Sequence record: OK272484.1
From: Escherichia phage JLBYU22
Length of the DNA stretch: 64,000 bases
Direction: 5' to 3' (one strand)
Shown here: positions 3,586 to 8,082 of the stretch, piece after piece
Numbering within the stretch: position 1 is the stretch's first letter
How the letters are laid out: each line of letters begins with the position of its first letter
Program-made: the position numbers and the translations under genes
The notes under the pieces: generated by a model
The model's input: only the letters and a program-made list of their open reading frames with translations
What the model was told of the DNA's origin: nothing
The model's database searches: none

Positions 3586-3864
3586 TCAAAATGTAATTTC
3601 TAACCAATCACCATCACGTTGATCACTATTGACTTTAAAGCTAAATCCTTCTTTTCTCAGCCAATCACCAATTTCTTCAGTAATCAATTTATCGCGAGCA
3701 GTACAATAATAACTAAAATATGTTTTACCTTGTTCAGCTGCTTTATTAGCAAGTTCCGAAAAATCTTTAATAAAACACTCTAGCTTAAACTGTTTACTTT
3801 TAAGTGCTTTTTCGCGTAATTGATTAGCAAAAGATTCATTTTCATAAAGATCATACTGTTCCAT
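3586..3864 (-). CDS. Hypothetical protein (position of T4 24.2)
   Basis: 92-aa ORF in coupled minus-strand block. Confidence 0.55.
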   Translation of the reverse strand: MEQYDLYENESFANQLREKALKSKQFKLECFIKDFSELANKAAEQGKTYFSYYCTARDKLITEEIGDWLRKEGFSFKVNSDQRDGDWLEITF

Positions 3865-4066
3865 TTTTCACCTTTTTATTAATATGTCTTTTTCTATAGA
3901 CAACTTTTTCTCGAGTTTCAAATTTATTCTTAGCAGTCATAGCTCGAGCCCATAATACAGCCACTTCTTTTGCCTGTAAGTTCAATTCACGAGCAATTTC
4001 AATGAATGACTTTCCAGACTCATGAAGAGTAAACACCACAACTTCAGTTCTCATAATCAATCTCAT
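3851..4066 (-). CDS. Hypothetical protein (position of T4 24.3)
   Basis: 71-aa ORF, basic, overlaps downstream ORF start. Confidence 0.5.
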   Translation of the reverse strand: MRLIMRTEVVVFTLHESGKSFIEIARELNLQAKEVAVLWARAMTAKNKFETREKVVYRKRHINKKVKNGTV

Positions 4067-4155: not shown

Positions 4156-5574
4156 TTATGGATAGGTATAGATTATACCAGTTTCTAAAGCAGTTTTGTG
4201 AATGATGTATCCATTACGTGATTCTTGGACATCAACTTCTGGATAGTCTTTCATCATCTTCTGAAGAGTGTAACGATGCAGGTAGTATTTACTATCTGGA
4301 TCTTCAGTTTTCCAATCTTTACCTTCTTCGGTCATTTTTTGGATTTCATCCATAACCCACCAACCACACCAGATGTAAGCTGAAGTACGATGTGGAAGAG
4401 GATGAACATAAGGTAATTCACCTTCTGGCTCTGGAGCAACTTTATCAGTTACCTGAACTTGACCTTCCGCCGTAATAGTTTTGCTATCATAATCAGCAGC
4501 AGTAACAGTTGCAGTAACTTCAATAGTTTGACTTCCAATAGATGAGGTATCAACGGTATATACATTAGTTGACCCTTCTACAGGAGAAGAATCTTTCTTC
4601 CATGAATACGCAATTTGCGCTTCTTCTGGAGCATCAGTGACATTAGCAGTAAATGTAGCCGAAGCATCTTGTTGAACGTTAATAGAAGGAGGAGTCAATG
4701 TAACCTGTGGATTCATTGTCTTCTTATTAACTGTTAATGATACTTCATTCGAAGTAACTTCCTTTTCATTGTAATTTTCAGCAGTTACTTGGGCTACGCA
4801 TTTAATTCTTTTTACTCCACTTGTAGTTGGAGTATAGTTAAATGTAGAGTTAGTTTCTCCACCAACTTGTGAATCATCTACATACCATTTATATGTAGCA
4901 GACGCTCCAACAGGTTGAGAAACCAAGGCAGCAGTAAATTGAACTGGGGTTCCAATTACTCCAGCTGAAGGACTATCAGGAGTTACTGCTAAGGTAGTTG
5001 TCTGCGTCTTTTTATTAACAGTCAGTGACACTTCATTGGAAGTAACTTCCTTTGTATCATAATCTGTCGCGGTTACTTGAGCTACACACTTAATTGTTTT
5101 AACTCCGCTTGTGTCAGGAGTGTAATTGAATGTAGCGTCAGTTGCTTCGTCTACAGGAGAACCGTCAACGTGCCATTGATACGTAGCGTTTGCACCTGAT
5201 GGCTGTGAAGCTAAGGCAGCGGTAAATTCAACAGCTGTTCCAATCACTCCAGCAGCAGGACTATCAGGAGTTACTGCCAAGGTAGTTGTCTGTGTCTTAT
5301 TTTGAACTGTGATAGTTGTACTAATTTCAGCTGTTTCAGCTTCAGAATCAGGAACTGGATTTGTTGCAACTACCTTAATAGTCTTTTGTCCAGCAGGACC
5401 TTTTAGTACATAACTAAAAGTTGCAGACGTTTCTTCCTGCGGTGCATCATCAACAGTCCAAGCATAGGTAATAGGTCCATCTCCAGTTTGACCACTGGGT
5501 GTAGCAGTAAACTGCTGAGTCTGATCTATAACTCCAGTAGGTGTTTTAGGAGTTATATCAACTGTAAAAGTCAT
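4156..5574 (-). CDS. hoc: Highly immunogenic outer capsid protein Hoc, 472 aa with four Ig-like domains plus capsid-binding C-terminus
   Basis: N- and C-terminal sequence as recalled for T4 Hoc; internal tandem Ig-like repeats; T4 Hoc is 376 aa. Confidence 0.88.
   Translation of the reverse strand: MTFTVDITPKTPTGVIDQTQQFTATPSGQTGDGPITYAWTVDDAPQEETSATFSYVLKGPAGQKTIKVVATNPVPDSEAETAEISTTITVQNKTQTTTLAVTPDSPAAGVIGTAVEFTAALASQPSGANATYQWHVDGSPVDEATDATFNYTPDTSGVKTIKCVAQVTATDYDTKEVTSNEVSLTVNKKTQTTTLAVTPDSPSAGVIGTPVQFTAALVSQPVGASATYKWYVDDSQVGGETNSTFNYTPTTSGVKRIKCVAQVTAENYNEKEVTSNEVSLTVNKKTMNPQVTLTPPSINVQQDASATFTANVTDAPEEAQIAYSWKKDSSPVEGSTNVYTVDTSSIGSQTIEVTATVTAADYDSKTITAEGQVQVTDKVAPEPEGELPYVHPLPHRTSAYIWCGWWVMDEIQKMTEEGKDWKTEDPDSKYYLHRYTLQKMMKDYPEVDVQESRNGYIIHKTALETGIIYTYP
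4723..5298 (-). repeat. Tandem duplication of a 288-bp Ig-like domain unit inside hoc (2 copies)
   Basis: Two consecutive 96-aa segments beginning KTQTTTLAVTPDSP and ending EVTSNEVSLTVNK, highly similar at protein level. Confidence 0.8.
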
Positions 5575-5583
5575 AAGTTATCC

Positions 5584-6264
5584 TTATTTTAATGTTACGA
5601 AAGAAGAATTGCGTGTTTCACGAATTAAAACTGATCCGTCACGGTTAATGTAATAAATTAAGCTAAATAAAGTTTGGTGTGCTGACGCATGCTCAAAACT
5701 AGTTGGGTGAGATTTCCAATCCGGAGTTTCAGCAATCCACTGGTAAATCCACCAAGGAACGGTGCAGAATCCTGGATTTTTTCCAATCAGCTGAAGATTC
5801 GGACTAAAGTTTTCCGGAAGAGTAAATACAGACAGCTTTTCAGATTCAATAATCTCAGCTACAGCCTGCTCGAATTTTTCTTCAACAAAAGGAGTATCTT
5901 CAATCAAAACATCGGTATTTTCAGGAATTTTATCCGTTTCTACTACTTCAATTTTAATGTCAGATTTAACCGGAGAATCAATCAGAAGTGCTGCCTCTGG
6001 ATTGACTTCTTCATCGTCATATTTTAACCCCTCTGCAGCATCAGCAGCATCAATTAAGTCTTTAATAGATAACCCATCAGTCTCTGGCATAGGTTCACTA
6101 GCGAGCTTCTGGAGGGCTTCTTCAATATCAACAACGATATTATCAAAAGATTTATTCTTTTTGACCTTTATACCAAACTGCTCAGCATATTCAGCTAATT
6201 TAGCTTTAGCTTCTTTGTTATCATCAAGAGCCTTCAGCTCTGCAATATAATCTTTATCTATCAT
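5584..6264 (-). CDS. inh: Inhibitor of prohead protease gp21
   Basis: 226 aa, same as T4 Inh; position between hoc and uvsW. Confidence 0.8.
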   Translation of the reverse strand: MIDKDYIAELKALDDNKEAKAKLAEYAEQFGIKVKKNKSFDNIVVDIEEALQKLASEPMPETDGLSIKDLIDAADAAEGLKYDDEEVNPEAALLIDSPVKSDIKIEVVETDKIPENTDVLIEDTPFVEEKFEQAVAEIIESEKLSVFTLPENFSPNLQLIGKNPGFCTVPWWIYQWIAETPDWKSHPTSFEHASAHQTLFSLIYYINRDGSVLIRETRNSSFVTLK

Positions 6265-6277
6265 AATATTTCCTCAG

Positions 6278-6285
6278 TATAAATA
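6278..6285 (+). promoter_or_regulatory. T4 late promoter TATAAATA upstream of uvsW
   Basis: Exact TATAAATA about 30 nt upstream of uvsW ATG. Confidence 0.55.
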
Positions 6286-6314
6286 TAGATATATTTATTA
6301 CATGGTATTTAGAC

Positions 6315-7826
6315 ATGACTGACATTAAAGTACATTTTTATGATTTTAGTCACGTGAGAATTGATTGTGAAGAAAGTACATTTCATGAACTCCGTGATTT
6401 CTTTAGCTTTGAAGCTGATGGGTATCGTTTTAATCCGAAGTACAGATATGGCCACTGGGATGGACGAATCCGTCTTTTAGATTATAATCGCCTTCTTCCA
6501 TTCGGCTTGGTCGGGCAAATTAAAAAGTTCTGTGATAACTTTGGCTATAAAGCCTGGATTGACCCGCAAATTAACGAAAAAGAAGAATTATCAAGAAAAG
6601 ATTTTGATGAATGGCTTTCTAAATTAGAAATCTATTCAGGAAATAAAAGAATTGAACCGCACTGGTATCAAAAAGATGCAGTGTTCGAAGGATTAGTTAA
6701 TCGTCGTAGAATTCTTAATCTTCCAACATCTGCAGGTAAATCTTTAATTCAAGCTTTGCTTGCTCGGTATTATTTGGAAAATTATGAAGGTAAAATTCTT
6801 ATCATTGTTCCAACAACTGCTCTGACAACTCAGATGGCTGATGACTTTGTTGACTATCGTTTATTCAGTCATGCAATGATAAAGAAAATCGGCGGTGGAG
6901 CATCAAAAGATGATAAATATAAAAATGATGCACCAGTCGTTGTTGGTACATGGCAAACTGTAGTAAAACAGCCGAAAGAATGGTTCTCACAGTTTGGAAT
7001 GATGATGAATGATGAATGCCATCTTGCTACAGGAAAAAGTATTTCATCTATCATATCAGGTTTAAATAACTGCATGTTTAAATTTGGTCTATCAGGTTCA
7101 TTACGTGACGGCAAAGCCAATATCATGCAGTATGTTGGAATGTTTGGTGAAATATTTAAGCCAGTAACGACCTCTAAATTAATGGAAGATGGACAAGTAA
7201 CTGAGTTAAAAATTAATAGTATTTTTCTTCGCTATCCCGATGAGTTCACTACTAAATTAAAGGGAAAAACTTACCAAGAAGAAATAAAAATTATTACTGG
7301 GCTCAGTAAAAGAAATAAATGGATCGCTAAATTAGCTATTAAGCTTGCACAAAAAGATGAAAACGCTTTTGTCATGTTTAAACACGTATCGCACGGTAAA
7401 GCTATTTTCGATTTAATTAAAAATGAATACGATAAAGTTTATTACGTATCAGGGGAAGTTGATACTGAAACCCGCAATATAATGAAAACCTTAGCTGAAA
7501 ATGGTAAAGGAATAATTATAGTAGCGAGTTATGGTGTATTTTCTACTGGTATTTCAGTTAAAAATCTGCATCATGTTGTTTTAGCGCACGGCGTTAAATC
7601 AAAAATCATTGTATTACAAACAATCGGTCGTGTATTACGTAAGCATGGTTCTAAGACAATAGCAACAGTCTGGGACCTCATCGATGATTGTGGTGTTAAG
7701 CCAAAATCTGCTAATACGAAAAAGAAATACGTTCATTTGAACTATCTTTTAAAACACGGCATTGATCGTATTCAGCGCTACGCAGATGAAAAATTTAATT
7801 ACGTAATGAAAACAGTTAATTTATAA
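6315..7826 (+). CDS. uvsW: UvsW DNA/RNA helicase
   Basis: 503 aa; Walker A LPTSAGKS and DECH box. Confidence 0.9.
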   Translation: MTDIKVHFYDFSHVRIDCEESTFHELRDFFSFEADGYRFNPKYRYGHWDGRIRLLDYNRLLPFGLVGQIKKFCDNFGYKAWIDPQINEKEELSRKDFDEWLSKLEIYSGNKRIEPHWYQKDAVFEGLVNRRRILNLPTSAGKSLIQALLARYYLENYEGKILIIVPTTALTTQMADDFVDYRLFSHAMIKKIGGGASKDDKYKNDAPVVVGTWQTVVKQPKEWFSQFGMMMNDECHLATGKSISSIISGLNNCMFKFGLSGSLRDGKANIMQYVGMFGEIFKPVTTSKLMEDGQVTELKINSIFLRYPDEFTTKLKGKTYQEEIKIITGLSKRNKWIAKLAIKLAQKDENAFVMFKHVSHGKAIFDLIKNEYDKVYYVSGEVDTETRNIMKTLAENGKGIIIVASYGVFSTGISVKNLHHVVLAHGVKSKIIVLQTIGRVLRKHGSKTIATVWDLIDDCGVKPKSANTKKKYVHLNYLLKHGIDRIQRYADEKFNYVMKTVNL

Positions 7827-7839
7827 GGGCTTCGGCCCT

Positions 7840-8082
7840 TTGGAGAAAAAGATGTTACTAGGATTTAAACAATTTCTTTATGAAGCTTCTATTGATGAAT
7901 TTATGGGTAAAATTGCCTCTTGTCAAACATTAGAAGGTTTAGAAGAACTTGAAGCTTATTACAAGAAAAGAGTTAAAGAAACTGAATTAAAAGATACTGA
8001 TGACATCTCTGTGAGAGATGCTTTGGCAGGAAAAAGAGCTGAATTAGAAGATTCAGACGATGAAGTAGAAGAAAGCTTTTAA
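7840..8082 (+). CDS. uvsW.1: UvsW.1 small acidic protein
   Basis: 80-aa ORF immediately downstream of uvsW. Confidence 0.7.
   Translation: MEKKMLLGFKQFLYEASIDEFMGKIASCQTLEGLEELEAYYKKRVKETELKDTDDISVRDALAGKRAELEDSDDEVEESF

Follow-up and report, generated by a model that had tools for sequence, protein, structure and literature searches.

The hoc gene of Escherichia phage JLBYU22 is best explained as that of a Tequatrovirus encoding a protein with four Ig/PKD-like domains, in which the domain additional to those of T4 would be an old paralogue of domain 2 belonging to a recombining copy-number polymorphism. We give this explanation, taken as a whole, a probability of about 85%. That the two domain-2 units result from a recent duplication is refuted by the synonymous divergence between them (dS) and by the orthology of each unit across phages. 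The window analysed was a stretch of 64,000 nucleotides from this phage (OK272484.1), and all JLBYU22 coordinates given below refer to it.

The hoc gene and the domain layout of its product

The coding sequence and its segments are the following:

4156..5574, minus strand: the hoc gene, coding for the highly immunogenic outer capsid protein (472 aa plus stop), identified from the ORF list and by homology.
5299..5574, minus strand: Ig-like domain 1 (D1), aa 1-92, aligned with T4 Hoc 1-92; beta-strand domain with a pLDDT of about 90.
5011..5298, minus strand: U1, or domain 2a, aa 93-188, of the 'SP' type; the domain that T4 lacks, recognised by the repeat searches and its unit clade, with Pfam Ig_2 and BiPBP_C matches at aa 121-177.
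4723..5010, minus strand: U2, or domain 2b, aa 189-284, of the 'SQ' type; equivalent to the domain-2 core of T4, with the best Pfam PKD stretch at aa 195-267.
4435..4722, minus strand: Ig-like domain 3 (D3), aa 285-380, aligned with T4 Hoc 189-284; Pfam Ig_3 and I-set matches at aa 289-373, beta domain with a pLDDT of about 90.
4159..4434, minus strand: C-terminal capsid-binding domain, aa 381-472, aligned with T4 Hoc 285-376.

On sequence grounds, the gene is the hoc of a Tequatrovirus. Over its whole length it is 100% identical in nucleotides to that of Escherichia phage TH09 (MT446387.1), and many Tequatrovirus records contain genes 94-96% identical to it, annotated as 'Hoc-like head decoration', 'PKD domain protein' or 'head outer capsid protein'. 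When the PDB was searched with the JLBYU22 protein using phmmer, T4 Hoc (5vf3_Z) was the sole match (E=2.5e-222), the best stretch aligning residues 189-472 with residues 93-376 of 5vf3_Z. A global alignment with T4 Hoc was collinear from end to end except for one 96-aa insertion; this alignment and the ORF bear out the lengths of 472 and 376 aa that an earlier note on this DNA had compared. The gene inh (5584..6264) is located upstream of hoc and the homologues of 24.3, 24.2 and rnlB downstream, and the order inh/hoc/24.3/24.2/rnlB agrees with the T4 annotation and with 12 other phage loci. The defining features of Hoc that can be read from sequence and predicted structure were all found, namely a C-terminal capsid-binding domain homologous to T4 residues about 281-376, an N-terminal string of Ig-like domains and the conserved locus.

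The surroundings of hoc vary among relatives. In T4, the GIY-YIG homing endonuclease gene segE lies between inh and uvsW; it is absent in JLBYU22, where a gap of 50 nt (6265-6314) separates the two genes. A gene is present at this place in PST and slur04, and none in PYps5T, UGKSEcP1 and others. The uvsW ORF of JLBYU22 (6315-7826, plus strand) encodes 503 aa, and a second ORF, of 80 aa (7840-8082, plus strand), comes after it; the T4 RefSeq record has a single uvsW CDS of 1764 nt, with a note on sequence discrepancies in this section. The 24.3 homologue (3851-4066, minus strand) encodes 71 aa. Its 216 nt equal the length found in PYps5T, ADUt and PinkRuby, whereas the T4 gene has 171 nt and encodes 56 aa; among relatives, lengths of 186, 204 and 216 nt occur.

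The hoc gene itself is annotated in pieces or shortened in several phages: T2 has two or three fragments, Yersinia phage PST a 5'-truncated CDS, and FriedrichMiescher a 'Hoc part 1 / part 2' pair. These annotations suggest either that a non-essential gene has been inactivated repeatedly or that there are sequencing frameshifts. Separately, a T4-like hoc 93.9% identical to that of JLBYU22 is found in MG010123.1, a record of 32,172 bp for 'Staphylococcus phage SAJK-IND' labelled as a Staphylococcus aureus phage, which is probably mislabelled or contaminated.

The domain layout was analysed with Pfam and AlphaFold2. The PKD family (PF00801) matched with 38.2 bits for a cut-off of 23.5, in two stretches, the better of which lies in U2. 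The Ig_2, Ig_3 and I-set matches were near or below the curated cut-offs, Ig_3 and I-set both being below. The AlphaFold2 model, built from an input alignment of 40 sequences, contains four beta-sandwich domains with a pLDDT above 90 over most of residues 1-376, and the strand patterns of U1 and U2 are nearly identical in it. The C-terminal domain is poorly modelled (pLDDT below 50). In Foldseek, the PDB entries that matched the model best were strings of four Ig domains, those of Sidekick, Dscam and ICAM-5 D1-D4, and the crystal structure of RB49 Hoc did not figure among the top 50 matches. Four Ig-like domains followed by a capsid-binding C-terminus, as previously proposed from the sequence, are thus backed by AlphaFold2, Pfam and the T4 alignment.

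The C-terminal domain differs from that of T4 at 3 of 92 aa, as read off the printed alignment, with 95.7% nucleotide identity and a dN of 0.009. The corresponding region of Hoc was solved on the T4 capsid (PDB 5vf3 and 8t1x; PMC10385173). From this near-identity, one JLBYU22 monomer would be expected at each gp23 hexamer centre of the mature capsid, and the protein would form a capsid-surface fibre in which the four Ig/PKD-like domains are carried by the conserved C-terminal domain docked at that centre.

Unit types, copy number and origin of the array

Tandem Repeats Finder, applied to hoc, detected a repeat with a period of 288 and 2.0 copies at 4718-5298 (77% matches, score 696), and a second repeat search paired 4718-5005 with 5006-5293 at 76% identity. 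In codon register the two tandem units together span exactly 4723-5298, where they had been placed before, and U1 and U2 are identical at 220/288 nt (76%) and 75/96 aa (78%). Both units are much further from the other Hoc domains (35-38% aa identity to D1 and 36-40% to D3). The earlier note had described the two 96-aa units as an in-frame tandem duplication of one Ig-like domain, and had tied this reading beforehand to the units being more similar to each other than to the other Hoc domains; the self-alignment shows that they are, with 78% identity against 35-40%. The positions at which U1 and U2 differ favour predicted loops, with 14/43 loop positions against 7/53 strand positions (Fisher p=0.03).

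The frequency of such arrays was estimated by sampling the INPHARED phage collection twice at even spacing. At least two domain-2 units were found in 24/60 and 13/32 comparable hoc genes, that is about 40%. Among the best 120 clusters of a large protein database, Hoc lengths were 376 aa (77 clusters), 472 aa (29) and 568-570 aa (8), with a few odd lengths, the 568-aa proteins having three units. Two-unit hoc genes were also found in JN02 and mobillu, two records classified as Mosigvirus. A 'repeat_region' annotated within the mobillu hoc was considered and rejected as an unrelated 28-nt feature.

The units were assigned to types SP, SQ and SL, named from the central dipeptide at unit positions 47-48. 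The composition of the protein clusters was the following:

Single units: SQ 47, SP 27, SL 8.
Two-unit arrays: SP-SQ 24, SP-SL 3, SQ-SL 1, SP-SP 1, SP-ST 1.
Three-unit arrays: SP-SQ-SL 6, SP-SQ-SQ 2.

The JLBYU22 array, SP-SQ, is the commonest two-unit form. No reversed type order was found among the 38 multi-copy protein clusters, a count that overstates the evidence since protein clusters formed at 90% identity do not represent independent lineages, and that should be read, like the others, qualitatively. By nucleotide sequence, ADUt, RB18 and Sso113 have a single unit of U1 type, and T4 and RB68 one of U2 type.

Many single-copy units are mosaics of types. The T4 unit, for instance, has an SQ core, with a head and a tail closest to first-position units, which implies two switches. 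A one-breakpoint chimera test on the single-copy units classified 29 as first-to-later, 13 as later-to-first, 6 as ambiguous and 34 as pure. A simple model of deletion by a single crossover was rejected and general mosaic recombination preferred, because the excess of one chimera orientation is moderate (29 against 13) and because of the two switches in the T4 unit. In the tree of the neighbouring inh gene, phages with one, two and three units are interleaved. The inh gene of JN02 is 73% identical to that of JLBYU22, and its hoc segments, which form the same two-unit array, are 85-95% identical; it would seem that hoc has either passed from one genus to another or been conserved to an unusual degree compared with inh.

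In the explanation that we favour, the domain-2 units, of which T4-like phages have from one to three, fall into at least three long-diverged types (SP, SQ and SL), and homologous or unequal recombination would contract, expand and reshuffle this old ordered array, the highly conserved unit starts supplying in-register homology for the exchanges. Such reshuffling is proposed because single copies can be of any type or mosaic and because phages of different copy number are intermingled in the inh tree. As to the ancestral copy number, the data fit a one-unit start as well as a multi-unit start. Going further, we suggest tentatively, at rather less than even odds, that domain 2 is an ancient ordered cassette array (SP, SQ, SL) whose copy number of 1-3 and mosaic content are continually reshuffled, and that the polymorphism is kept by diversifying or balancing selection on fibre length, valency or glycan specificity in mucosal settings.

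The array might instead be of allelic origin, which we regard as unlikely. Domain 2 would then have diverged into single-copy alleles that unequal recombination during co-infection set in tandem; the one-unit form would be ancestral, and the multi-unit arrays derived, yet old and widely spread by recombination. In its favour, every type in the cluster counts given above has single-copy representatives, recombination is free among T4-like phages, the hoc gene is a mosaic, and short similar sequences (ACWGTT..AAKAAGACA) at the domain junctions could support in-register illegitimate exchange. However, the 38 multi-copy clusters, with no array in reversed order, speak against tandemisation having occurred independently several times, and a single allelic origin and ancient paralogy look alike in the present data.

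Age of the two copies

The age of the units was addressed with Nei-Gojobori estimates. Between U1 and U2, dS is 1.12 and dN 0.134 (dN/dS about 0.12). In comparison, the orthologous D1, D3 and C-terminal segments of JLBYU22 and T4, RB18, RB68, slur04, PYps5T, PinkRuby and others gave dS values of 0.06-0.42. The proportion of synonymous differences (pS) varies along the unit, reaching 0.73 in the 48 central codons (25-72), where it is saturated, against 0.30 in codons 1-24. Because of this difference, the starts of the units are either homogenised more recently or otherwise constrained, and their cores are very old.

Comparison with other phages points in the same direction. The nucleotide identity of U1 is 91-94% to the first-position units of PYps5T, slur04, PinkRuby, UGKSEcP1 and EC101, and also to the only unit that ADUt has. 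For U2 it is 95-96% to the second-position units of PYps5T, slur04 and PinkRuby, 94% to domain 2 of RB68 and 89% to that of T4. Identities to the same-position units of the Mosigvirus JN02 are lower, at 85-90%. Each unit is thus far closer to the same-position unit of close relatives than to its own neighbour. Consistently, when 22 units from 12 phages were placed in a neighbour-joining tree by their nucleotide sequences, they grouped by type and not by phage, and the first-position SP clade was recovered in 200/200 bootstraps.

A 288-bp tandem duplication that occurred recently and in situ in the JLBYU22 lineage is therefore highly improbable. It would account for the adjacency and common frame of the two units and for the near-identity of their ends: stretches of 14, 21 and 15 nt match exactly in register, and the first 72 nt are 87.5% identical. 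However, overall identity is 76%, synonymous divergence is high and saturated in the core, each unit has its closest kin at the same position in PYps5T, slur04 and PinkRuby, and the architecture is common to about 40% of related genomes. Of what a recent duplication leads one to expect, only the adjacent in-frame copies were observed: synonymous divergence is not low, the array is not restricted to one lineage, and the two copies are not each other's nearest kin. The earlier reading of this locus was therefore sound as to the identity of hoc, the in-frame duplication and the four-domain layout, but its description of the duplication as 'recent' does not stand against a dS of 1.12 and the orthologous units found elsewhere. 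Still less credible is a doubling of the segment by sequencing or assembly: tandem repeats are prone to mis-assembly, but nothing here is specific for such an artefact, the copies differ at 68/288 nt with the frame kept, and the same architecture occurs in hundreds of independently sequenced genomes. The extra domain of JLBYU22 would accordingly be an old paralogue of Hoc domain 2 rather than a recent duplicate.

The extra domain in the fibre and comparison with other Hoc proteins

Hoc is a model for phage adherence to mucus and is widely used as a phage-display and vaccine scaffold. In JLBYU22, both domain-2 units are intact, in frame and predicted to adopt Ig-like folds, and the C-terminal anchor is near-identical to that of T4. 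Both units are taken to be functional domains because both are under purifying selection, with the low dN/dS given above. They differ in charge, U1 having a pI of 4.3 and a net charge of -6.2 and U2 a pI of 5.2 and a net charge of -1.2. This contrast could be relevant to the role in pH-dependent clustering and dispersion proposed for Hoc (PMC10385173).

T4 Hoc is a monomeric fibre of about 180 Å with four domains, anchored at the centres of gp23 hexamers (PMC10385173). If these 18 nm are split evenly over the four domains, the extra module would lengthen the fibre by roughly 4-5 nm. The Ig-like domains of Hoc bind weakly to mucin glycans, and domain 2 of the phiPNJ-9 Hoc binds MUC2 (PMC11853027). 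By analogy, the extra domain would be one more weak-affinity module for binding glycans or surfaces, and a second domain-2 paralogue plausibly adds reach, valency or a different specificity. That domain number may affect reach or binding, as the earlier note suggested, is reasonable and not new (PMC10385173, PMC11853027). The natural one-, two- and three-unit variants are ready reagents for relating fibre length or module number to mucin binding, immunogenicity and display geometry. For annotation, the lesson is that the 376-aa Hoc of T4 represents just one allele class among several that are common.

The feature is not new: variation in the number of Ig-like domains of Hoc has been published, and the sequence and hundreds of close relatives, annotated as Hoc, are public. 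In the literature searched, neither an explicit 472-aa Hoc with two domain-2 units nor the ordered SP/SQ/SL cassette picture was found, the closest being general statements on domain number (PMC10385173) and a variant devoid of domain 3 (PMC11853027); PMC10580926 and PMC13370021 contained nothing relevant to a 472-aa Hoc, and the supplement text of PMC10385173 contained no table of Hoc lengths. The ordered cassette picture is a modest extension of the known variability of Hoc.

T4 Hoc (376 aa; NP_049793; PDB 5vf3 and 8t1x) is encoded at the same gene position as the JLBYU22 protein. It has a single, mosaic domain-2 unit, whereas JLBYU22 adds an SP-type unit upstream, for a gain of 96 aa. The 472-aa Hoc proteins of slur02, slur04, vB_EcoM_G4507, PinkRuby, PYps5T, ime09, wV7 and others share the SP-SQ architecture, with 89-96% nucleotide identity over the gene, and differ from that of JLBYU22 by allelic differences only. 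In UGKSEcP1, UGKSEcP2 and EC101 (568-570 aa), the first two units are of the same types and in the same order as in JLBYU22, but a third unit, usually SL, brings the number of Ig-like domains to five. More widely, Hoc homologues have from 1 to 10 Ig-like domains, 10 in Serratia phage Muldoon and 1-2 in others (PMC10385173), and the phiPNJ-9 Hoc has no domain 3 (PMC11853027). These published variants differ in which domains were gained or lost and are much more divergent in sequence, but they too consist of a variable string of Ig-like domains on a conserved C-terminal anchor, for which adhesion to mucin or surfaces has been proposed or shown.
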